Source: Ilumatobacteraceae bacterium
GTDB taxonomy: Bacteria; Actinomycetota; Acidimicrobiia; Acidimicrobiales; Ilumatobacteraceae
NCBI GenBank assembly: GCA_041748635.1
Contig: JBGTCW010000226.1
Coordinates: forward strand, 1-27,111
Length of the DNA: 27,111 nt
Reading direction: 5' to 3'
Of the stretch, positions 4,500-23,949 are shown one piece after another. Numbering within the stretch: the stretch's first letter is position 1; every line of letters starts with the position of its first letter. The position numbers and the translations under genes are program-made. The notes beneath the pieces were generated by a model, which saw only the letters and a list, made by a program, of their open reading frames with translations, was not told the DNA's origin and did not search any database.

Positions 4500-5726
4500 A
4501 TGTCGGCAATCGGACGGATGCGAGCGCTCGGCGCCCGACGCGCCATGGCGTCGCTCGCGCTCGTCGCCGCAGTCTCCGTCGGTTCGACGACACTGCCACT
4601 CACCGCTGCGCAGGCGCAGGATCCGGCTGCCGTGCGCGCCGCCGCCGAGATCCAGGCGGCACGTGACCGCGCGAATGTTGCCTCGCAGGCGATGTTCGAC
4701 GCCGAGTCACGACTCGACGGTCTCCAGATCGAGATCGAGACCGCCGAGAAGGACCTCGCTGCTGTCGAAGCCCAGGCCACAGCGATGCGCAGCAGCCTCC
4801 AACAGGACGCACAACGCAGCTTCGTCAACTCCGGCACCTCGATCCCGCTGTTGATCGACCTCGACCAGGCGAATGCCAGCATCACAGCTGAGCGTCAGGC
4901 GTCGGTGGCGAGAGGCGCAGCGTCGGTGGAGCTCGACGACTTCGCTGCCGTGATGAAAGAGGTGAACGCCCAGCGCACCGACCTCGAACGCCAGCAGGAG
5001 ACCACGACCGCCGCACGTGAGCAGTTCGAATCGCTCAAGGCGACAGCGGAGGCCGAGGTGGTCGCGCTCGCCGAGATCGAAGAGCAGCGACTGGCCGACG
5101 TGGCCGTGCAGCGCGAACTCGAACGCCAACGACAGGCCAAGCTGGCCCAAGACGCCGAGGCCGCTCGTCAGGCACAGATCGTGAGCGACCGGGCAAACGC
5201 CAGTGCCCCCGTCGCCGCCGCCGCTCCCGCTCCCCGTGGTTCGGGTTCGTCCGCCCCGTCGAACGGTGGATCAGCGGCGACGAATCCCCCTCCGGCAGCG
5301 CCCGCTCCGGTTCCCGCCTCGCCACCGCCCTCGAACGCAGGCAGCGGCATCGTGTGCCCGGTCGCCGGCCCTCACGCATTCGCCGACACCTGGGGCGCCG
5401 CGCGATCCGGCGGTCGCAGTCACGAAGGCGTCGACATGATGGCACCGCGGGGCACGCCGCTCGTTGCGGTCGAGTCTGGTTTCGCCCAGTTCAAGACCAC
5501 GAACCTCGGTGGGAACTCGATCTGGGTGAACGGCGCCAGCGGCACTCGCTACTTCTATGCCCACCTGAGCGCATGGGAGGGTTCGAGCCGAAACGTCTCG
5601 CGCGGCGAGGTGATCGGCTACGTCGGCGCCACCGGCAACACCACGGCGAACCACCTCCACTTCGAGGTGCACCCGGGCGGCGGGCGGGCGGTCAACCCGT
5701 ACCCCTACGTCCGCGGCGTCTGCTGA
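4500..5726 (+). CDS. Secreted M23 family peptidoglycan endopeptidase with N-terminal coiled coil
   Basis: Signal peptide ending about TAAQA, a long Ala/Glu/Gln coiled coil, a Pro/Ala/Ser linker, then the M23 zinc motifs HEGVD, YAHLS and HLHFE. Start at 4500 (or 4518). Confidence 0.9.
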   Translation: MSAIGRMRALGARRAMASLALVAAVSVGSTTLPLTAAQAQDPAAVRAAAEIQAARDRANVASQAMFDAESRLDGLQIEIETAEKDLAAVEAQATAMRSSLQQDAQRSFVNSGTSIPLLIDLDQANASITAERQASVARGAASVELDDFAAVMKEVNAQRTDLERQQETTTAAREQFESLKATAEAEVVALAEIEEQRLADVAVQRELERQRQAKLAQDAEAARQAQIVSDRANASAPVAAAAPAPRGSGSSAPSNGGSAATNPPPAAPAPVPASPPPSNAGSGIVCPVAGPHAFADTWGAARSGGRSHEGVDMMAPRGTPLVAVESGFAQFKTTNLGGNSIWVNGASGTRYFYAHLSAWEGSSRNVSRGEVIGYVGATGNTTANHLHFEVHPGGGRAVNPYPYVRGVC

Positions 5727-5752
5727 CCCGCCTCATCTCCCGGCCGCTCCGA

Positions 5753-5804
5753 CGTTCATGTGACAGTTCGGATGAACAGGGTCATCCGAACTGCAACGTG
5801 AACG
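5753..5804. repeat. 52-bp palindromic intergenic repeat, copy 1; likely also a bidirectional terminator
   Basis: CGTTCATGT-GA-CAGTTCGGATGA-acaggg-TCATCCGAACTG-CA-ACGTGAACG: a 12-bp perfect inner stem plus a 9-bp outer stem, between convergent stops at 5726 and 5811. Confidence 0.8.
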
Positions 5805-5810
5805 GGGTGG

Positions 5811-6476
5811 CTACGCAACGGGGTAGCCGGCGAGGAGCACTCCGGCCACCGCCAGGACGGCGCCCGACCCGGACAGCAGCAGGAACTTGCTGATTCCGTT
5901 GCTGAATGACGCGGTGATTCCGGCGAAGAACAGCGCGCTCGCGAAGAACAGCGTGAGCTGGATGTAGTCGTCGGCGTGAGCGCCCGACTCCTCACTGCGA
6001 ACGGTCGCTGCGAGCGCTTCCGCGTCGGCCGCTTCGGACGCAGCGAACAGCTCACCGAGGTAGTCCTGATCGGCGAGCAGGTTCGTGGGCGTCTGGCCCA
6101 CGGCGAGTTGTGCCTCCCAGTTCTCGAACACAGGCAGGAAGCCGGGGCGGACAAGCGTGGCACGAAGAAAATCCTGCAGCTCCTGGTTGTCAGCAGCAAC
6201 CGCTGCGGCGTACTGACTCACCGTCGCCGAGTCGTACGCGACGATCTGGGTCGCCAGGGCGTACTCCCGCGATGCGTCGAGGCGAGAGACCGCCGACGCA
6301 CGTGCCTCGTCGGTCTCGACGCCGTTCCACCGAGAGACCTGATAGGCCGACCACGCCGATCCGACGGTGGCGACGCCGAGCAGCAGCACGGTGATGATCT
6401 CGATCAATCGACCTGGTTGCGACCGCGACGACCTGCGCGACCCCTCCTTCGACGCCGACCAGGGCGAGTCGCTCAC
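5811..6476 (-). CDS. Membrane protein of unknown function, DUF4337-like (1 N-terminal TM, soluble helical loop, 2 C-terminal TMs)
   Basis: Hydrophobic segments IITVLLLGVATVGSAWSAY and YIQLTLFFASALFFAGI...VLLAGY. The GTG start overlaps the SPFH stop (GTGA). The family label is from recalled resemblance only. Confidence 0.7.
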   Translation of the reverse strand: MSDSPWSASKEGSRRSSRSQPGRLIEIITVLLLGVATVGSAWSAYQVSRWNGVETDEARASAVSRLDASREYALATQIVAYDSATVSQYAAAVAADNQELQDFLRATLVRPGFLPVFENWEAQLAVGQTPTNLLADQDYLGELFAASEAADAEALAATVRSEESGAHADDYIQLTLFFASALFFAGITASFSNGISKFLLLSGSGAVLAVAGVLLAGYPVA

Positions 6477-7363: not shown

Positions 7364-7451
7364 CAGTTTGACCCCGCCGGCAGTAACGCATCTGCGTCCA
7401 TAGGAAAGCACACATTAGCCACCCGGCCGTTGCCCCGAACCCGTGCGGGGG

Positions 7452-7499
7452 GCGCTGTCTGGTCGTCGGGCCTCGAACGGACCGACGACCAGACAGCGC
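7452..7499 (-). terminator. Strong hairpin, probable intrinsic terminator after the small lipoprotein gene
   Basis: 18-bp perfect inverted repeat GCGCTGTCTGGTCGTCGG / CCGACGACCAGACAGCGC, starting 12 nt after the stop at 7512. There is no U-tract, which is common in actinobacteria. Confidence 0.75.
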
Positions 7500-7511
7500 T
7501 TCATCGGCAGA

Positions 7512-16109: not shown

Positions 16110-16271
16110 GAGGTATCACTTCCTGATCTCTGTGTTGGACCGGCGAATGCCGGGATCGGACCAGCGTAGAGCCTCCGCGCCCGACCCACCTCCCGACTGC
16201 GGTCCTTCGGGGTCGGGTCCGGGAGGACCGGCGGTTCGCTGAGGTGGGCTGACGGCGGACACAATGAGTCC

Positions 16272-17417
16272 ATGAGAACTGCCGCCACCGAGATGCTGGA
16301 CATCGAGTTCCCGATCTTTGCGTTCAGTCACTGCCGCGACGTCGTCGCCGCCGTGTCGAAGGCCGGTGGTCTCGGCGTGCTCGGCGCCGTCGCGCATTCG
16401 CCCGAACAGCTCGAGATCGACCTGAAGTGGATCGAGGCCGAGATCGGCGACCGGCCGTACGGCGTCGACCTCATCGTGCCGGCCAAGTACGCAGGCGACG
16501 AGGGCGGTGGGTACACGCTCGACGACATCCGTTCGCTGATTCCCGACACCCACCGCGAGTTCGTCGACGACATCCTCCGCCGCTACGACGTCCCTGAGTT
16601 CCCACCCGACGAAACACGTTCGAGCGGTCGCTCGACCGGCGGTCATGGCGGCATCGCCCCGTTCAGCGCTGCGGCTGCCGGCCCGCAGTTGGAGATCTCG
16701 CTTGCTCACAAGACGGCGTTCGTTGCCAACGCGCTGGGTCCGCCGCCGCAGTTCCTGATCGACCGGGTGAAGGAGGAAGGTCGTCTGATCGGTGCGCTCG
16801 CCGGGCGACCGGTGCACGCCGAACGACACCAGGCCGCCGGTGTCGACCTGATCATCGCCCAGGGCTCCGAGGCCGGCGGTCACACCGGCGAGATCGGTTC
16901 GATGGTGTTGATCCCCGAGATCGTCGACGCCGTCGACATCCCAGTTCTCGGCGCCGGCGGCATCGGGCGCGGTCGCCAGATGGCCGCCGCAATGGCGCTC
17001 GGTGCGCAGGGAGTGTGGTGTGGCTCGGTCTGGCTGACCACCGACGAGGCCGAGACGCATCCGGTCGTGAAGCAGAAGTTCCTCGCGGCCACGTCGGCCG
17101 ACACCATCCGTTCGCGGTCGCTCACCGGCAAGCACGCTCGAATGTTGAAATCGGCGTGGACCGAAGAGTGGGATCGCGTCGACACGCCGGATCCGCTCGG
17201 CATGCCACTGCAGCCGATCCTCACCAACGAAGCCCAGGCGCGCATCAACCGTGCCGCGCACACGCACGGATCGGGCGCCGAGAAGTTGGCGAACTACTTC
17301 GTGGGCCAGATCGTCGGCACGATGAACCAGCCGAAGTCCGCCGGCCAGGTCGTGATGGACATGGTGACCGAGTTCATCGACGCCGTCGAATCACTGGCCG
17401 GCCAACTCGAATACTGA
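16272..17417 (+). CDS. Nitronate monooxygenase family FMN-dependent oxidoreductase
   Basis: GGLGVLGA, QGSEAGGHTG and AGGIGRGRQMAAAMALGAQGVWCGS. CACAAT (16260-16265) lies 6 nt before the ATG, suggesting a leaderless mRNA. Confidence 0.9.
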   Translation: MRTAATEMLDIEFPIFAFSHCRDVVAAVSKAGGLGVLGAVAHSPEQLEIDLKWIEAEIGDRPYGVDLIVPAKYAGDEGGGYTLDDIRSLIPDTHREFVDDILRRYDVPEFPPDETRSSGRSTGGHGGIAPFSAAAAGPQLEISLAHKTAFVANALGPPPQFLIDRVKEEGRLIGALAGRPVHAERHQAAGVDLIIAQGSEAGGHTGEIGSMVLIPEIVDAVDIPVLGAGGIGRGRQMAAAMALGAQGVWCGSVWLTTDEAETHPVVKQKFLAATSADTIRSRSLTGKHARMLKSAWTEEWDRVDTPDPLGMPLQPILTNEAQARINRAAHTHGSGAEKLANYFVGQIVGTMNQPKSAGQVVMDMVTEFIDAVESLAGQLEY

Positions 17418-17429
17418 GCACCAAAACCA

Positions 17430-17481
17430 CGTTCATGTTGCAGCTCGGATGGGCCGCCCCGTCCGAAGTGTCACGCGAACG
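17430..17481. repeat. 52-bp palindromic intergenic repeat, copy 2 (inverted relative to copy 1)
   Basis: CGTTCATGTTGCAGCTCGGATGGG-ccgc-CCCGTCCGAAGTGTCACGCGAACG; 40/52 identical to the reverse complement of copy 1 (manual count). Confidence 0.78.
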
Positions 17482-17498
17482 GATGCGCGCGCTGAGCG

Positions 17499-17535
17499 TA
17501 GGATTGCCGGGCTCACCCCTTCGCCCACGAGGAGC
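17499..17535 (+). promoter_or_regulatory. Putative -10 TAGGAT and SD (GAGGAG) of the DUF808 gene
   Basis: TAGGAT at 17499-17504; GAGGAG shortly before ATG 17539. Confidence 0.45.
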
Positions 17536-17538
17536 GCC

Positions 17539-18507
17539 ATGGCCAGCGGTCTCGCCGCACTACTCGATGACATTGCCGCCCTGGCGAAGCTTGCGGCCGC
17601 GTCGGTCGACGACGTCGGTGTCGCGGCTGGGCGGGCGAGTGTCAAGGCCGCCGGCGTCGTGGTCGACGACGCGGCGGTGACGCCCGCCTACGTGAGCGGG
17701 CTGGCCGCGGACCGCGAGTTGCCGATCATCCGCAGGATCGCGACAGGTTCGCTCCGCAACAAGATCCTGTTCATCCTGCCGGCGGCGCTGCTCCTGAGCA
17801 CCGTCGCTCCGGTCACGGTGGAGGTCATCTTGATGCTGGGCGGGACGTACCTGTGCTTCGAGGGTGCCGAGAAGGTCCGCCACCGCTTGGGTCGACACGA
17901 CGCCCACACCGACGAGCATGCGAACGGCGAGAGTGACCTGCCGGCCGTGATGCTCGGGCCGGAGGCCGAGGAGCACACGGTCAAGGGGGCGATCCGCACG
18001 GACTTCATCCTGTCGGCGGAGATCATGGTCATCGCGTTGAAAGAGGTGATCGACGAGGGGATCGTCCAGCGTGCGATCATCCTGGCGATCGTGGCGGTAC
18101 TGATCACCGCGGTGGTCTACGGCGTGGTGGCGCTCATCGTGAAGATGGACGACGTCGGGCTGCGCCTCACCCAGCGCGACGATCAGCGCTCGCAACGCCT
18201 CGGGCGGTCGTTGGTGATGGGCATGCCGAAGCTGCTCGCAGCGCTGTCGATCGTGGGAACTGCCGCGATGCTCTGGGTCGGCGGACACATCCTGCTCGTC
18301 GGTGCCGACGAACTCGGCTGGCACACGCCATACGACCTCGTTCACGACGTCGAACGCTGGGTCGCTGACGTCCCTGTGATGGGTGGGGTGTTCGCCTGGT
18401 CGGTGAACACGCTGATCTCTGCCCTCATCGGCTTCACCGTCGGCTCGATCGTGGTGACGATCGTGTCGAGGGTGCACCGTTACCGCTCGCACGCCACCGC
18501 GGCGTGA
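17539..18507 (+). CDS. DUF808 (YedI-like) inner membrane protein
   Basis: MASGLAALLDDIAALAK, AGVVVDDAAVTP, GSLRNKILFILP, KGAIRTDFILSAEIMVIAL and VYGVVALIVKMDDVGL. Confidence 0.88.
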   Translation: MASGLAALLDDIAALAKLAAASVDDVGVAAGRASVKAAGVVVDDAAVTPAYVSGLAADRELPIIRRIATGSLRNKILFILPAALLLSTVAPVTVEVILMLGGTYLCFEGAEKVRHRLGRHDAHTDEHANGESDLPAVMLGPEAEEHTVKGAIRTDFILSAEIMVIALKEVIDEGIVQRAIILAIVAVLITAVVYGVVALIVKMDDVGLRLTQRDDQRSQRLGRSLVMGMPKLLAALSIVGTAAMLWVGGHILLVGADELGWHTPYDLVHDVERWVADVPVMGGVFAWSVNTLISALIGFTVGSIVVTIVSRVHRYRSHATAA

Positions 18508-18547
18508 CCTCGAGCACCTCGATCGAGTCAGCTCACGGTGCCCGCTC

Positions 18548-18594
18548 TACCACAGTCTCAGGTGGAGTGGTACACTCATGCGATGAGTGGTACA
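18548..18594 (+). promoter_or_regulatory. vapBC promoter/operator: -10 TACACT embedded in inverted and direct repeats
   Basis: TACCAC-N13-GTGGTA (18548-18572); CACTCAT-gcg-ATGAGTG (18573-18589); GAGTGGTACA twice (18565, 18585). The -10 at 18571-18576 is 6 nt before the ATG. Confidence 0.6.
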
Positions 18595-18828
18595 TACTCG
18601 ACAACGATGGGAGACCGTGGGCGATTCGTCATGCCTGCCGAGTTGCGGTCCCGCGCAGGACTGACGGAGGGGACGCCGCTCGTGCTGCTCGACACGCCAG
18701 GCGGGGTGGTGGTGATGACCCGAGAACAGCTCCGGGCGCGCGTTCGCGAGGAACTCAGCGGGGTCGATCTCGTGGGCGAACTCCTGGCCGATCGGCGCCG
18801 AGCCGCAGCCGACGAGGACCACAGATGA
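18583..18828 (+). CDS. vapB: AbrB/MazE/SpoVT-family antitoxin (VapB)
   Basis: TTMGDRGRFVMPAELRSRAGLTEGTPL swapped-hairpin signature; ATGA overlap with the PIN toxin. Confidence 0.88.
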   Translation: MSGTYSTTMGDRGRFVMPAELRSRAGLTEGTPLVLLDTPGGVVVMTREQLRARVREELSGVDLVGELLADRRRAAADEDHR

Positions 18829-19193
18829 ACGTCGTCCTCGATGCGTCCGCCGTGCTTGCGTTCCTGCAGGACGAGCCGGGTGCATCCATCGTCGAGGCTT
18901 CACTCACGACCGGCGCAACGTGCAGTGCCGCAAACTGGTCGGAGGTCGCTCAGAAGGTTCGAGCTGCAGCCCGGGACTGGGATCTCGTCCGAGCGCTGCT
19001 CGTCAGCTATGACGTCCGCGTCGAACCCGTGACCGTGGATGATGCCGAGTGGGCGGCTGGTCGCTGGCGCTCTGGAGAGGGCTTGTCGCTCGCCGACCGG
19101 CTCTGCCTCGCTCTCGCCGAGCGGGTTGACGCCGAGGTCCTCACCGCCGACACGACGTGGGGAGCAGCGGGCCGCGTCCGTCAGATCCGCTGA
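18825..19193 (+). CDS. vapC: PIN-domain ribonuclease toxin (VapC)
   Basis: VVLDASAVLA, NWSEV, LSLADRLCLALA and VLTAD: the four acidic PIN residues are present; 122 aa. Confidence 0.92.
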   Translation: MNVVLDASAVLAFLQDEPGASIVEASLTTGATCSAANWSEVAQKVRAAARDWDLVRALLVSYDVRVEPVTVDDAEWAAGRWRSGEGLSLADRLCLALAERVDAEVLTADTTWGAAGRVRQIR

Positions 19194-20019
19194 TCAAATT
19201 GCCGCTGTGCCGAGGCCGGTGGCGTCGAACCAGTCGAGGAAGCGGTCGATCCACGTGTCCGACGGCAGACCACGGATGCGCATCCCGAATCCGTGACCGC
19301 CGCGCGCATACATGTGCAGCTCCACCGGCAGGTGGCCGGCCCGCCAAGTTTCGTACAGCGTGATCGAGTCGGCAGCGAGGCCGAGTTCGTCGTCGGTCGC
19401 CGCGGCGACGAACATCGGTCCGGAGCCCTCGGGTGGGCCAGCGAGTTCGACACCCCGCAGGGTGGCGTAGATCGGAGCGAGGAAGTCGGGTCGCGCGGCT
19501 GGATCGGTTGTGGGCGACCCGTACCGCGACGTTCCCTCCGGCCGAGAACCCCATGAAGCCGACGCGTCGAGCGTCGACACCGAACTCGTCGGCTCGGGCA
19601 CGAACGAGTTTCATCGCTGCTTCGGCGTCAGCGGTGGCAAGTGGTGCGACGCCCAGCATGTCGTCGAGCATCGCCCCGAGGTCAACGGACGCCTTCCGGA
19701 CCATCTCGGCGTCAGCGGTGTCGGCGCACGGGACGAGGCGGTAGACGAGCACGAAGGCGGCGATGCCGCGCTCGGCGAGTCGTTCGGCGACCTGCAGCCC
19801 CTCGCTCTGGATCGACAGGACGTGATAGCCACCGCCTGGCGCAATGACAACCGCCGCACCGTTGCCCGCTCCGGCTGCGGGGAGCACCGGAATCAGCGAC
19901 GGCGCGACGACGTTGGTGATCACCTCGGTGTCGAGCAACTCGCTGAAGTACCGCTGCTCGACGTGGGTCCAGGCCTCACTTCCGGGCGCGGGTCCGTCGA
20001 ACAGCTGGATCGCTTCCAT
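19194..20019 (-). pseudogene. Alpha/beta hydrolase (esterase) split by a single-base frameshift near 19512-19514
   Basis: The first frame has VVIAPGGGY and the nucleophile motif GFSAGG. The second frame continues RPDFLAPIY, AATDD and GGHGFG (Asp, His). Removing one C of the minus-strand CCC restores VATTDPAARPDF. It could be a sequencing error. Confidence 0.8.
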
Positions 20020-20054
20020 GTCGCGAAGTCTGCCGTACCGGCTTCACCGGCTGG

Positions 20055-20897
20055 CTACTCGTAGAGGCAGATGGCGCGCAACTCGATGCTCGACCGCGCC
20101 GGGTTGCCGATCTCGACGTCGGGATCACGGAACGCAGAGTGCGGTGTGAACCACGTCTCGCCGCGCTCGACGAGGTCCGTGTCGTAGGTGCGGAAAGCGA
20201 CGACCTCGTCGGGGCGAAGCTCGGGGAAGGCGAACCAGTGGTACTGCCCGGGCTCGGCTGGCCCGAGCACGGCGACGGCCTCGAAGTCGACCCCGGAGCC
20301 TGCGTAGTCAGAGACCGGAATCGGGCGGGCATCGGCGGGCGTGACGGTGCGGGCGTCACAGAATCCCAGCGGGAAGTCCATCTTGGGTGGGCCGAGGTTC
20401 CGCCAGAACTGCAGGATGACGAGCCTCGACGCCCGCGTGACGTCGTCGGGGGTCACGCCGTTGCGTTCCAGCGATCGGGCCGACCCCGGACGATCGGGCA
20501 GATCGTACGATCGTCGCACGAGGTCGTCGTAGCCGATGGCGAAGTCGGAATGCACGAACGCGATCGGCGCCAGGTCCTGGTGTCGCTGCGCATGCTCGGG
20601 CCCTCGCTTGATGTGGTTCGACACCAGCGCCACATCGCATCCGGTCAGCTGACGGGCGAGATCCTCCATCTCACGATGGTGGACCGCAGCCAGCTCGTCG
20701 TCGTCACCCCAGCTCGACACCGCCGACGTGTGCGCCACGAGTTCGAAGCCACACTCGTCCCAGCCGGGCAGGTCGATCCGTCGCCCGTCGAGGATGTCGA
20801 CCTCCTCCGGACGCGCTTCGAACTCGCCGCTGCGGGCGGCGAAGTTGAGCGTCGCGCGACAGAACACGTCGTCAGGATTCCAACCCCGTTCGTCCAT
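20055..20897 (-). CDS. CmcJ/NvfI family Fe(II)-dependent oxygenase-like protein
   Basis: GFELVAH, FVHSDF (HxD), LQFWRN, PLGFCDARTV, FTPHSAF and RSSIELR. TAGCGT (20904-20909) lies 6 nt before the ATG. Confidence 0.82.
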   Translation of the reverse strand: MDERGWNPDDVFCRATLNFAARSGEFEARPEEVDILDGRRIDLPGWDECGFELVAHTSAVSSWGDDDELAAVHHREMEDLARQLTGCDVALVSNHIKRGPEHAQRHQDLAPIAFVHSDFAIGYDDLVRRSYDLPDRPGSARSLERNGVTPDDVTRASRLVILQFWRNLGPPKMDFPLGFCDARTVTPADARPIPVSDYAGSGVDFEAVAVLGPAEPGQYHWFAFPELRPDEVVAFRTYDTDLVERGETWFTPHSAFRDPDVEIGNPARSSIELRAICLYE

Positions 20898-20961
20898 GCC
20901 GTCACGCTACGCCGATGACCAGGGCGCGAACGAACGACGTGCGCATCCCGGCAGCATCGAC

Positions 20962-21921
20962 TCAGCGGTCGTACCCCGGTGCCGGCTCGCTCAGCTTGAA
21001 CGTGACGCCCTGGTCGTCCTCGCAGATGGCCTCACGCCCCGAATCGTGAGCGTTCAACTCCACGACCGTGCCGCCGGCCACGCGCACCCGCTCGACGGCC
21101 TCGTCGAAGTCGCGCACGGCGAACCACATCTCGATCTCGCCGGGCTCGGTGTTGCCGAACGGGTTCTCGGTGGCACGCAGACCGATCGGCATCTCGGTAT
21201 TGGTGACGTGGTGGCCACCATTGCCCTGCGCCTGGAACTCCCAGCCGAGCACGGCGCCGTAGAACGCTGCGCCGCGCTCGACGTCGGCCGTCGTGAGCGT
21301 CATGTAGTATGGCTCAGAGGGGGCTCGACGCGCTGCGATCTGCGCGGCGTCATGGACCGGCGTTCCGACGTTCCAGCGATGGCCGAACGGGTCGACGATC
21401 CACGCACTGCGCGAGCCGTGCGCCTCCTCGATCGGGCGCTGAACCACGGCACCACCTCGCACGGCCCGATCGACGAACTGCTCGACCGCAGCCACCTGCA
21501 GCACGATGCTGACCGAGCTCCGCGAACCGTCGCGGGTGGGCGCCACGACACCGAGCTGTGGCGCCTCGTCGCTGAGGTAGAACACCGCGCCCGACACGTC
21601 GAGTTCCGCGTGTCCGACGCTCCCCTCCCACGGGATGACATTGCTGACGCTGGCGCCGAAGTGGTCTCGGTACCAGTCGAGAGCGGCGTTGGCGTCGTGT
21701 ACGCAGACGTACGGGGTGATGACCTGGTTCACGGTGGTGCTCCTGTCCGGGTGGTGATCGGTGGCGGCCAGTTGGATGTCGGGCAGGTCGATGGTGACGC
21801 GTTCGGGTTCGACACCGAGGGCGCGCTGCACCCGTGCCCGCAACCGAGCTGCGAACAGTGGGTCGACGGCGTCCGTGGTCATCGGGGTCAGCCGGTCGAA
21901 GGGGTCGACGAAGTCGGTCAC
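20962..21921 (-). CDS. Tandem VOC/glyoxalase-fold protein with N-terminal extension
   Basis: Domain 1: ITPYVCVHDANAALDWY...IVDPFGHRW (PhnB-like). Domain 2: LTTADVERGAAFYGAVLGW...EDDQGVTF. It has a ~60-aa N-terminal extension, and its GTG overlaps the ECF stop. Confidence 0.88.
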   Translation of the reverse strand: MTDFVDPFDRLTPMTTDAVDPLFAARLRARVQRALGVEPERVTIDLPDIQLAATDHHPDRSTTVNQVITPYVCVHDANAALDWYRDHFGASVSNVIPWEGSVGHAELDVSGAVFYLSDEAPQLGVVAPTRDGSRSSVSIVLQVAAVEQFVDRAVRGGAVVQRPIEEAHGSRSAWIVDPFGHRWNVGTPVHDAAQIAARRAPSEPYYMTLTTADVERGAAFYGAVLGWEFQAQGNGGHHVTNTEMPIGLRATENPFGNTEPGEIEMWFAVRDFDEAVERVRVAGGTVVELNAHDSGREAICEDDQGVTFKLSEPAPGYDR

Positions 21922-22451
21922 GACACACCTCCGTGCTGTCGTTCGTACACGGTTCGAAAGCGTCGCCGCGCCCGGACCAGGAGTGTCTCGGTCGCCTCAA
22001 CGGTGCGACCGAGATGCGCCGCGACGTCCGGCACCGGCAGCCCGTCGAAGTAGCGCAGGGCGAGTGCCGAACGGTGGTGGGGACCGAGTTCGGCCATCAC
22101 GTCGCCGACGAGGTGTTGGTCGATGACGGCGTCCCACACGTCGTCGACGTCGGCGGAGGCTTCCCTTGCGTCGTCGTCGAGGCGACCAGCGCTCGGTCGG
22201 CGCGCCGATCGTCGCCACTCGTCGATCAGTTTGTGGCGGGCGATCCCGATCAGCCAGGCCACAGTGACCTCGTCGACTCGTCCGCGGCGGATCTGCGCAA
22301 CGGCGGCGAGGAAGGTGTCAGCAGTCAGATCCTCCGCCTGGGCACGCTGTCCGCAGCGGGCGTGCAGGTACCGGAACACGTCACCGACGGCGACATCGTA
22401 GATCGCCAACAACGTCGCGCCGTGGTCGACCGAAGGTGCACTGGAACCCAT
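21918..22451 (-). CDS. ECF-type RNA polymerase sigma-70 factor
   Basis: Region 2: VFRYLHARCGQRAQAEDLTADTFL and AWLIGIARHKLIDEWRR. Region 4: LALRYFDGLPVPDVAAHLGRTVEATETLLVRARRRF. 177 aa, start 22451 (or GTG 22454). Confidence 0.92.
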   Translation of the reverse strand: MGSSAPSVDHGATLLAIYDVAVGDVFRYLHARCGQRAQAEDLTADTFLAAVAQIRRGRVDEVTVAWLIGIARHKLIDEWRRSARRPSAGRLDDDAREASADVDDVWDAVIDQHLVGDVMAELGPHHRSALALRYFDGLPVPDVAAHLGRTVEATETLLVRARRRFRTVYERQHGGVS

Positions 22452-22485
22452 CACCTCATCATCGTCCTCGGGCCCCGATCTCCGA

Positions 22486-22520
22486 CACCCCGAATCACCC
22501 CGGACACCCCTGCCCACCCC
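22486..22520 (-). repeat. Four GGGGTG units at 10/9/10-bp spacing; G-quadruplex-forming motif
   Basis: Minus strand GGGG-TGGGCA-GGGG-TGTCC-GGGG-TGATTC-GGGG-TG, 35-69 nt upstream of the ECF start. Confidence 0.7.
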
Positions 22521-22571
22521 GTTCGTGTGCGGATTCGGATGACCCGACCCATCCAGAATGCAACGCGAACG
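22520..22571. repeat. 52-bp palindromic intergenic repeat, copy 3
   Basis: CGTTCGTGTGCGGATTCGGATG-acccgacc-CATCCAGAATGCAACGCGAACG; 38/52 identical to copy 1 (manual count), same length and same termini. Confidence 0.7.
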
Positions 22572-22597
22572 TGGGTTGGGCGGTGACTTCGGGCGCT

Positions 22598-22637: not shown

Positions 22638-23864
22638 GTGAGTTCGCAACGAGTCGACATCGCCGTGATCGGCGCCGGTCCAGCGGGCGCGGCCACTGCG
22701 ATCCAGGCCGCCCGGTCGGGAGCGAACGTGGTGGTGTTCGAGAAGGGCGCCCACGGACGCGACAAGGTGTGTGGCGACGGCCTCACACCACGAGCGGTCG
22801 GCGCGTTGAATGAATTGAAGATCCCACTCGACGACGCCCATCTCATCCGCGGCTTGCGGATGATCGCCGGCAAACAGGTCCGTGAGCTCGACTGGCCGAC
22901 GACCGACCGGTTCCCGAACCACGGAGCGGTCTGGCCTCGTCGTCGTCTCGACGCAGCGTTGATGGACGCCGCCGTCGAAGCGGGCGCCGAGATCGTCTAC
23001 GAGACCGAGGCGACCCCGGTGTTCGGCGACGACGGCCGCGTGACCGGCGTCGAGGCCAACGGCAATCGATTCGACGCAGGCCTGACCGTGATCGCCGCCG
23101 GTGCACAGGGTGCGGTGGCCCGCAAGCTCGGCGCCGACCGCGTTCCCGACGAACCGTTCGGTCTGGCGATCCGTACCTATGCGGCGACATCTCGTCACAC
23201 CGACAGCCACCTCGAGGCATGTCTGTCGTTGAAGGACGAGAACGGCGTTGCGATCCCCGGCTACGGCTGGATGTTCCCTGCGGGCGACGGCACGGTGAAC
23301 ATCGGAGTCGGCGCGCTGTCGACCATGAAGGGGTTCAAGAAGCTGAACCTCAACACGTTGCTCGAGTCGTACCGCCACCTGGTGCAGGACGACTGGGATC
23401 TCGGCCCGAACATCGAGCGTCCGCGGGCGTGGCGCCTGCCGATGTCGACCCAACGCCGCCACGGTCCGGGCTGGGTGGCGATCGGCGACGCGGCCGGCCT
23501 CGTCAACCCGATGAACGGAGAGGGCATCGACTACGGCCTCGAATCGGGCATGCTCGCCGCCGACCTGTTCCTCGCCGACCCGGCGACGGCTCCGGTTCGC
23601 TACGACGAACTGGTCGGCGAACGCTTCGACGCCTTCTTGCGGACCGGTCGACGCTTCTCGTTCCTGATCGGGCACCCGTGGATCCTCAAGCCCGGCCTGC
23701 GGCTGTCGGTGAGCACCGATGCGATCGCCAACATCACCCTTGCCGTGATGGGCAACCTCGTCGACAACACCACCCCCGGCGCCGCCGGCCGGGTGCTCTC
23801 GATCGCCGACAAGGCACTCGGCCTCGCCGATCCGATCCTCCGCAAGACCCGCGCCGCCGCCTGA
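22638..23864 (+). CDS. Geranylgeranyl reductase family FAD oxidoreductase, MenJ (menaquinone reductase)-like
   Basis: VIGAGPAG, RDKVCGDGLTPRAV, GYGWMFP and IGDAAGLVNPMNGEGIDYGLESG. CAGCGT (22626-22631) lies 6 nt before the GTG. Confidence 0.88.
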   Translation: MSSQRVDIAVIGAGPAGAATAIQAARSGANVVVFEKGAHGRDKVCGDGLTPRAVGALNELKIPLDDAHLIRGLRMIAGKQVRELDWPTTDRFPNHGAVWPRRRLDAALMDAAVEAGAEIVYETEATPVFGDDGRVTGVEANGNRFDAGLTVIAAGAQGAVARKLGADRVPDEPFGLAIRTYAATSRHTDSHLEACLSLKDENGVAIPGYGWMFPAGDGTVNIGVGALSTMKGFKKLNLNTLLESYRHLVQDDWDLGPNIERPRAWRLPMSTQRRHGPGWVAIGDAAGLVNPMNGEGIDYGLESGMLAADLFLADPATAPVRYDELVGERFDAFLRTGRRFSFLIGHPWILKPGLRLSVSTDAIANITLAVMGNLVDNTTPGAAGRVLSIADKALGLADPILRKTRAAA

Positions 23865-23880
23865 CCCGGCCCTCCGGCGA

Positions 23881-23922
23881 GCGATGAGCCACGCATGCGT
23901 ATACGCAGGTCTCGCTCATCGC
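23881..23922. terminator. Hairpin between convergent genes, probable bidirectional terminator
   Basis: GCGATGAGC / GCTCATCGC 9-bp arms enclosing the perfect palindrome TGCGTATACGCA (23896-23907). Confidence 0.6.
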
Positions 23923-23949
23923 AGGAGCCGCGACCAGCTGGGGAAAGTG

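Follow-up and report, generated by a model that had tools for sequence, protein, structure and literature searches.

Orphan palindromic repeats such as the CGTC-type REPs and TRIT leave two standing questions, namely how they spread and whether they are useful to the cell. Three palindromes lie in a stretch of 27,111 nucleotides (hereafter the window), which is contig C226 of a metagenome-assembled genome (MAG) from a hot spring (G000; 2.9 Mb in 614 contigs, 75% complete, 67% GC). Four DNA runs of the hot-spring metagenome study contain the organism, and no RNA run does. The copies are at 5753-5804, 17430-17481 and 22520-22571, and each is exactly 52 bp long, with ends CGTTC...GAACG and the centre GGATG-N8-CATCC (CGTCC in copy 2). 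When the sequence was re-read, the coordinates, length, termini and core motif given in an earlier note were all reproduced, and a repeat finder placed the copies in a single three-member family (D6). The copies and their extended units are as follows, with scores under the covariance model R1.

Copy 1, 5753-5804, no strand assigned: 52-bp core palindrome with G/T-type arms (GTGACA...TGCAAC); 70.1 bits.
Copy 1 extended unit, 5727-5810, no strand assigned: C-rich, G-poor left flank, core, and GGGTGG on the right.
Copy 2, 17430-17481, no strand assigned: 52-bp core with T/G arms on the + strand; 69.5 bits.
Copy 3, 22520-22571, no strand assigned: 52-bp core with the rarer GTGCGGA left arm; 59.6 bits.
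Copy 3 extended unit, 22514-22580, no strand assigned: CCACCC, core, and TGGGTTGGG.

Copy 1 is in an 84-bp convergent gap between an M23-peptidase gene (4500-5726, + strand) and an unassigned gene on the opposite strand (5811-6407, −), and its extended unit spans the entire gap from stop codon to stop codon. Copy 2 starts 12 nt past the stop codon of a nitronate-monooxygenase-family (NMO) gene (16272-17417, +), and there are 57 nt between its end and a DUF808 gene (17539-18507, +). Copy 3 is in a 183-bp divergent gap between an ECF sigma-factor gene (21918-22454, −) and a FAD-oxidoreductase gene (22638-23864, +), and its arm variant was also found at C388:104 and C581:155 and in the genomes G077 and G123. 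Self-trained ORF calls thus bore out the convergent, tandem and divergent settings that had been described. The three cores fold into stems of 21-23 bp with loops of 4-8 nt (−20 to −33 kcal/mol; z −2.3 to −7.9 against shuffled sequences), while copy 1 folded with its flanks reaches −46.8 kcal/mol (z −7.3). The earlier note described the differences among copies as clustering in the loop. The loop does differ, but so do fixed two-state stem positions, which give the arms GTTGCA, GTGACR and GTGCGGA. The G/T-rich flank that it described is real, but it is one half of a symmetric pair, in which CCACCC (G-depleted) on the left is matched by its complement GGGTGG on the right. The absence of a GTAG foot was confirmed, and the genome-wide flank consensus is CCACCC / GGGTGG. 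What had been missed was a strong tie to gene 3' ends and the conservation of positions across species.

The rest of G000 contains many more copies. A strict degenerate pattern gave 43 matches per strand and its reversed control none, which puts the family far beyond chance. A fuzzy scan found about 65 copies, every one of them 52 bp and with no indels, a count that includes one doublet locus (two copies) twice as contigs C32 and C139 overlap. The covariance model gave 131 strand hits, or about 66 loci. The doublet locus counted twice (C32:2489-2613 and C139:1729-1853) is at two contig ends, in opposite orientation; the pair represents overlapping contigs or strain variants. Contigs end within a few hundred bases of many other copies too, a sign that assembly probably breaks at the repeats.

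Genes of G000 were called with a self-trained codon-usage ORF caller (2,938 genes, 90.6% coding). The suspected intergenic bias is complete in this gene-dense genome: 65 of 65 copies are intergenic, two seeming overlaps with genes being doubtful ORF calls only. About 56 copies could be classified by gap type, with 41 in tandem, 8 in convergent and 8 in divergent gaps. At loci with only one gene ending towards the element, copies begin a median of 19 nt past its stop codon (IQR 16-27); tandem gaps in G000 have a median of just 24 nt. Direct doublets occur at 12 loci, ten of them with a period of 71-73 bp, and in doublets the flanks were partly duplicated together with the core. The unit can be written CCACCC-[52]-GGGTGG, about 64-72 bp in all, with loosely conserved flanks whose skew (C-rich and G-poor on the left, G-rich on the right) reaches about 15 nt out. 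The arm variants GTTGCA, GTGACR and the rarer GTGCGGA are combined freely among copies. G/T-type copies show a modest orientation bias relative to the upstream gene (16 vs 5, p = 0.027, uncorrected).

The family is largely confined to one genus. With the covariance model, 48 of the 54 species of an uncultured Ilumatobacteraceae genus have matches at E <= 1e-5, many of them up to the scoring cap, and copies were also found in long-read assemblies of other species. Among 145 other genomes of the family, three have one or two weak loci, and none of 150 genomes from other Actinomycetota (115 genera) matches the model. Scans with the exact pattern had found nothing in 24 congeners, hits in two of 400 family genomes, and two other Ilumatobacteraceae MAGs among 185,579 species. 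Since that pattern demanded CGTTC/GAACG and most congeners have CGTTT...AAACG, the family looked restricted to three species; this confinement was an artefact of the exact pattern and was overturned by the covariance model. An Rfam match would have removed the novelty of the family, and none was obtained over the window at gathering scores; permissive searches returned nothing but sub-threshold matches to eukaryotic miRNA precursors, of the kind that any long hairpin gives. A literature search found no palindromic repeats of this kind described from Ilumatobacter or Acidimicrobiia. The proposal of a REP-like dispersed family is supported in that the copies are many, all extragenic, hairpin-forming and lineage-restricted.

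As a single strand, whether RNA or DNA, the unit forms a stem of 23-29 bp with a 6-nt loop. The basal 13 bp (CGTTYRYGTKRCA and its complement) are conserved in sequence throughout the genus, and the distal stem is kept only as structure. Covariation, which had been suggested as a check, was found between species but not within the genome. In the 43-copy alignment from G000, 80.5% of cells are paired, against 80.9% when 3' partners are shuffled; each arm thus departs from a palindromic master sequence independently of the other. The consensus is particular to each species, and where species differ the changes are compensated. The inner stem is GGATG:CATCC in G000, G444, G256 and G359, GGGTG:CACCC in G023, G077 and G123, and GGTTG:CAACC in G155, where GGCGC:GCGCC also occurs, while others have GTTGC:GCAAC. 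The termini are CGTTC:GAACG or CGTTT:AAACG, and one stem pair shows three different base pairs.

Pairing between species was tested on 50 sequences from ten genomes, of which seven represent species of the genus and three belong to two other genera. Paired cells made up 87.7% vs 80.2 ± 0.5 in shuffled alignments, and double-sided changes numbered 119 vs 48 ± 7, with neither value reached in 500 shuffles, but the changes amount to few lineage-wide events and the statistic thus overstates their independence. In slid registers of the same alignment pairing always dropped to about 30-40%. Because the consensus shifts by compensated pairs, the hairpin is preserved. The same pattern could also be produced by a symmetric DNA-binding protein or by foldback copying. 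Folding energy did not differ between sense and antisense strands (19 vs 19 loci), and selection specific to the RNA strand is not supported by folding energies.

An unrecognised transposase had been proposed as a possible mobiliser, and RAYTs are the obvious candidates. G000 has three Y1_Tnp (PF01797) genes, which are below the NCBIfam RAYT cut-off yet clearly of RAYT type. The one on C43 is bracketed by a palindrome family of roughly 33 bp (GATTACATC...GATGTAATC), the one on C140 by a 37-bp family (GATGTAACG...CGTTACATC, 49 copies), and the one on C164 by a family of roughly 29 bp (GGTCCTCCGGGGTCGGGTCCGGGAGGACC, at least 23 copies). Since each gene has its own palindrome, linkage between RAYT and REP is detectable in G000, and the three genes serve as an internal control. 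For the 52-bp family no such linkage was found. Around 27 RAYT-like genes from 11 genomes, out to 1.5-2 kb, no sequence scored above 20 bits (best 19.7), while true copies score 36-77 bits under the covariance model. A RAYT as neighbouring mobiliser was therefore ruled out, there being no copies or half-sites at the three Y1_Tnp genes of G000 and the 24 in ten other genomes. RAYT presence is also uncoupled from the 52-bp family across the 54 species: copies occur without any Y1_Tnp match in G013, G434, G077 (95% complete, about 20 contigs), G440, G009 and G443, and Y1_Tnp genes occur without copies in G433, G008, G006, G374, G024 and G020.

Two of the RAYT-linked families deserve description on their own. 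The C43 family (GATTACATC[AG]SGGGTC[AT]GACCCSYG[AT]TGTAATC) has about 70 copies, often as inverted doublets 40-70 nt apart in a REPIN-like manner, and four copies bracket a 281-aa RAYT-like gene (L008 1411-1442 and 2292-2325; C43:5171 and C43:7474). This family and its gene are a canonical REP-RAYT pair in an acidimicrobial MAG. The C140 family has the structure GATGTAACG-N-TTGGTGTC-N-GACACCAA-N-CGTTACATC and flanks a 267-aa RAYT-like gene on both sides (L006 1001-1037 and 1869-1905).

The suggestion of a MITE was not supported either. When single arms were searched for throughout G000, one real orphan half-site turned up. No gene there is bracketed by single arms, as would be expected of a parent insertion sequence (IS) with these ends, although short-read MAGs often leave insertion sequences unassembled. 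The genes found between full copies include the housekeeping gene lysA and genes for an AbiEi/DUF559-like protein, a Rieske-type protein and an aldo-keto reductase, and none is a transposase. Comparison with relatives, which the earlier note had suggested, yielded both filled and empty orthologous sites, but the borders carry no direct repeat that would indicate target-site duplication; the flanks of the unit (CCACCC / GGGTGG) are complementary and not direct repeats. The four metagenome runs showed no presence/absence polymorphism at any of the three window copies, and the only joint at these copies (17456 to 22550) is an assembly-graph link caused by the repeat. Integron attC sites, dif/Xer sites and CRISPR were also considered and dropped: there was no R''/R' core, cassette array or 11-6-11 geometry, and at most two units are in tandem.

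The orthologous sites in other species indicate that the positions are old. Downstream of the M23-peptidase gene (copy 1), 8 of the 14 species compared have a copy. In G434 the convergent stop codons are 2 nt apart, in G204 and G018 the site contains unrelated sequence, and in G023, G015 and G014 it is occupied by other palindromic repeat families. Downstream of the NMO-family gene (copy 2), a copy is present in 15 of 24 species; the site is empty in G001 and G021 (gaps of 15 nt and 3 nt) and has other palindromes in G007 and G374. At the NMO site, G435 (L142) has a 64-nt tract that is purely C/A-rich and G359 (L124) a shorter C-rich tract, with no hairpin in either. The C-rich flank may be an independent 3' UTR feature of the genus, perhaps rut-like, or the footprint of a lost copy. 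The third locus is the argS-lysA junction, where the order argS, doublet, lysA, copy is common to G000, G023 and G123, lysA being followed by another copy or doublet in these three species. Its coordinates are C54:627-750 and C54:2091-2214 in G000, and the locus is L169 in G023 and L171 in G123. The doublet forms a pair of hairpins that is conserved between the two cistrons, and the locus is well suited to testing. Thus, at all three loci examined the orthologous positions are occupied in many species.

The sequences at these old positions are nevertheless species-specific. Paralogs within a genome have a mean pairwise identity of 0.74-0.90 (in genomes other than G000 they were sampled by top-scoring hits, which inflates their likeness), while orthologous copies have 0.55-0.65. 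Orthologs from G000 and G155 fit the profile of their own genome best. Old positions with paralogs more alike than orthologs point to concerted evolution, which needs either gene conversion between copies or their copy-and-paste replacement at favoured sites.

Among known systems, the closest is TRIT, the Tuberculosis Rho-independent terminator motif of Mycobacterium, a bidirectional and genus-restricted palindrome that measures about 50 nt and is present in 147 copies (Gardner et al. 2011, PMC3152330). It is tightly positioned at gene ends, with a narrow distance to stop codons (PMC3152330). TRIT overlaps few true termination sites (bioRxiv 2022.06.01.494293), and its dual cleavage pattern is suggestive of RNase III, like that of Correia elements; both are putative substrates of RNase III with a part in shaping 3' ends (PMC13714241). 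The likeness, which is drawn from the published description and not from sequence alignment, is extensive: an Actinomycetota host, palindromes of about 50 nt conserved in both sequence and structure, tens to about 150 copies per genome, usability in either orientation, a narrow stop-codon distance, restriction to one genus, no canonical U-tract and no known mobilising enzyme. The two differ in host genus and class (the 52-bp element belongs to Acidimicrobiia) and in placement, as the 52-bp element has a median position 19 nt past the stop codon whereas TRIT overlaps the coding end (about −8).

The REP/BIME and REPIN-RAYT systems of Proteobacteria (PMC2817692, PMC3116915) resemble the 52-bp family in being high-copy extragenic imperfect palindromes of lineage-specific sequence, with regularly spaced clusters and vertical persistence, and two inverted arms of 23 nt around a 6-nt loop form one long hairpin as in REPINs. 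However, the element is 52 bp (64 with flanks) while REPs are 20-40 bp, and it has neither a GTAG tag nor a cognate RAYT flanked by copies; the three canonical RAYT-flanking families in the same genome show how such linkage looks there. A GTAG or CGTC foot is absent, and the CGTTC/CGTTT termini lie within the stem. Its doublets are direct repeats of the whole palindrome and not alternating REPs as in BIMEs, and stand-alone half-elements are virtually absent (one in the genome), unlike in REPINs. The CGTC-tagged REPs (Di Nocera et al. 2013, PMC3733652) are likewise abundant palindromes for which no dedicated transposase was found, even where genomes encode tyrosine transposases (PMC3733652). 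The 52-bp element differs from these in that its termini are part of the stem and not a CGTC tag at one foot, and in its greater length, and the survey did not report the element from the Ilumatobacteraceae lineage (PMC3733652). Correia repeat-enclosed elements of Neisseria are also dispersed intergenic inverted repeats, and RNase III cuts their hairpin when it is co-transcribed, which influences where mRNAs end. They are, however, MITE-like elements of 100-155 bp with 26-bp terminal inverted repeats and TA target duplication, neither of which was seen in the 52-bp family. The test for a canonical intrinsic terminator found the hairpin without the U-tract of 7-9 nt: the six positions 3' of the core are GGGTGG, with T at no more than 42% at each. 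By these comparisons the family is not a RAYT-linked REP, a MITE or a canonical terminator, and it is filed with the orphan REP-like/TRIT-like palindromic 3'-end elements. New here are the lineage, the sequence, the RAYT independence beside three canonical REP-RAYT pairs, and the finding that positions stay fixed while sequences evolve in concert.

With moderate confidence we favor, on the basis of these analyses, a REP-like and TRIT-like genus-specific element that serves as a transcript 3'-end or intercistronic hairpin and is homogenised independently of RAYT by an unspecified process. In transcripts reading through it from either side, the long hairpin would be preceded by a C-rich tract and followed by a G/U-rich one. 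This hairpin would define or process the mRNA 3' end or the intercistronic junction, possibly as a double-stranded substrate of the RNase III type, as a block to exonucleases, or as a pause hairpin behind a rut-like C-rich tract (Rho). The missing U-tract sets it apart from canonical intrinsic terminators. In vitro, hairpins that lack a U-tract do not cause termination by mycobacterial RNA polymerase (PMC3993855), and this observation, together with the TRIT literature, favors a processing or stabilising RNA hairpin. The copies of one genome would be kept alike by gene conversion or copy-and-paste replacement, and the homogenising machinery would be something other than a neighbouring RAYT. 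A 3'-end signal has no obvious use at the copies in divergent gaps (about one in seven), which are upstream of genes.

Another reading, possible though we think it somewhat unlikely, is that the family is purely selfish, a non-autonomous mobile hairpin like a REPIN that is mobilised in trans by an enzyme recognising single-strand hairpins. The enzyme might be a promiscuous RAYT of G000 or an unrecognised one, and the sites behind stop codons would merely tolerate insertions. A high-copy palindrome built of two inverted 23-nt arms, the fixed doublet period and the orientation bias of the G/T-type copies (16 vs 5, p = 0.027) suit such an element, and a genome-specific consensus with paralogs closer than orthologs implies ongoing copying. 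A given intergenic site may be vacant in one species and taken by a different palindrome family in another, and with a median tandem gap of 24 nt the nearness to stop codons could be passive. On the other hand, none of the 27 RAYT-like genes is flanked by copies, six species have abundant copies without Y1_Tnp and six species with RAYT have no copies. A target duplication, a parent element and a stand-alone half-site population were all sought in G000 and at orthologous sites and not found. Moreover, the presence of the three window copies is invariant across the four metagenome runs, and 3/3 loci are at orthologous positions in many species, including the conserved argS-lysA doublet. The possibility of an assembly or contamination artefact, or of chance resemblance, is negligible. 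It could draw on a MAG in 614 contigs, on copies often near contig ends and on one locus appearing twice (C32, C139), but independent contigs from the four runs match the three window copies exactly, the family occurs in long-read assemblies of other species, and the reversed control pattern had 0 matches.

The copies might also be bound, as duplex or cruciform DNA, by a protein of the host (for example a nucleoid-associated protein, or gyrase or IHF as happens at the BIMEs of E. coli), with the two conserved 13-bp boxes read by a symmetric protein that co-evolves with its sites. We regard this as improbable. It is true that the outer boxes keep their sequence throughout the genus around a variable centre, that the arms in one genome differ independently of each other in the manner of separate half-sites, that the length and geometry are fixed (0 indels in 65 copies), and that copies are present in divergent, promoter-side gaps as well. 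However, the box centres are about 39 bp apart in the duplex, which is awkward for a dimer, and the changes in the inner stem are compensated, which matters only if the arms pair. In addition, the bias to the first 10-30 nt past the stop codon and the placement in the argS-lysA operon suit an RNA role better, and there is no known candidate protein. We also consider it unlikely, though less so, that the element is a host-maintained signal whose 13-bp basal stem is read by a dedicated, genus-specific factor, with about 60-100 copies kept identical and their positions fixed. Such a factor could be a hairpin-specific nuclease, a processing enzyme or a non-Y1 copying enzyme, and the same factor or an associated conversion process would homogenise the dispersed copies in each species. 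If a dedicated factor does exist, REP-type elements could be propagated and homogenised by a route that needs no RAYT, which would explain orphan REPs (such as the CGTC class and TRIT) in general.

Whichever of these readings applies, the genus is a clean comparative setting, with three canonical REP-RAYT pairs and one abundant RAYT-less family in a single genome. The 54 species genomes (48 carriers and 6 without copies), with their species-specific compensated stem variants, make phylogenetic profiling for the missing factor feasible. Several orthologous sites, including the argS-doublet-lysA junction, can be traced through gain, loss and replacement by other palindromes, and the setting of the 52-bp family allows simple reporter or RNase III tests. 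For annotation, the element flags gene 3' ends in MAGs of this genus and accounts for many contig breaks.

Three other palindromes were noticed in the window. A copy of the palindrome GGTCCTTCGGGGTCGGGTCCGGGAGGACC is at 16201-16229 in the divergent gap 16110-16271; its family has at least 23 copies, of which tandem copies bracket the RAYT-like gene on C164 (L007). Many alternative joints were found in Logan contigs exactly at 16201-16229, as expected of a repeat. A 44-bp palindrome (GAGCGATGAGCC...GCTCATCGC) is at 23879-23922 in the convergent gap 23865-23949, and this gap folds at −41.6 kcal/mol. It belongs to a separate dispersed family with copies on C8, C10 (two) and C12, and in G014 a related element is at the site downstream of the peptidase gene. 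The tandem gap 7364-7511 contains a 48-bp palindrome (7452-7499) whose 19-bp stem is perfect. This palindrome appears to be unique in the genome, other matches being noise, and it may be an ordinary terminator-like hairpin.
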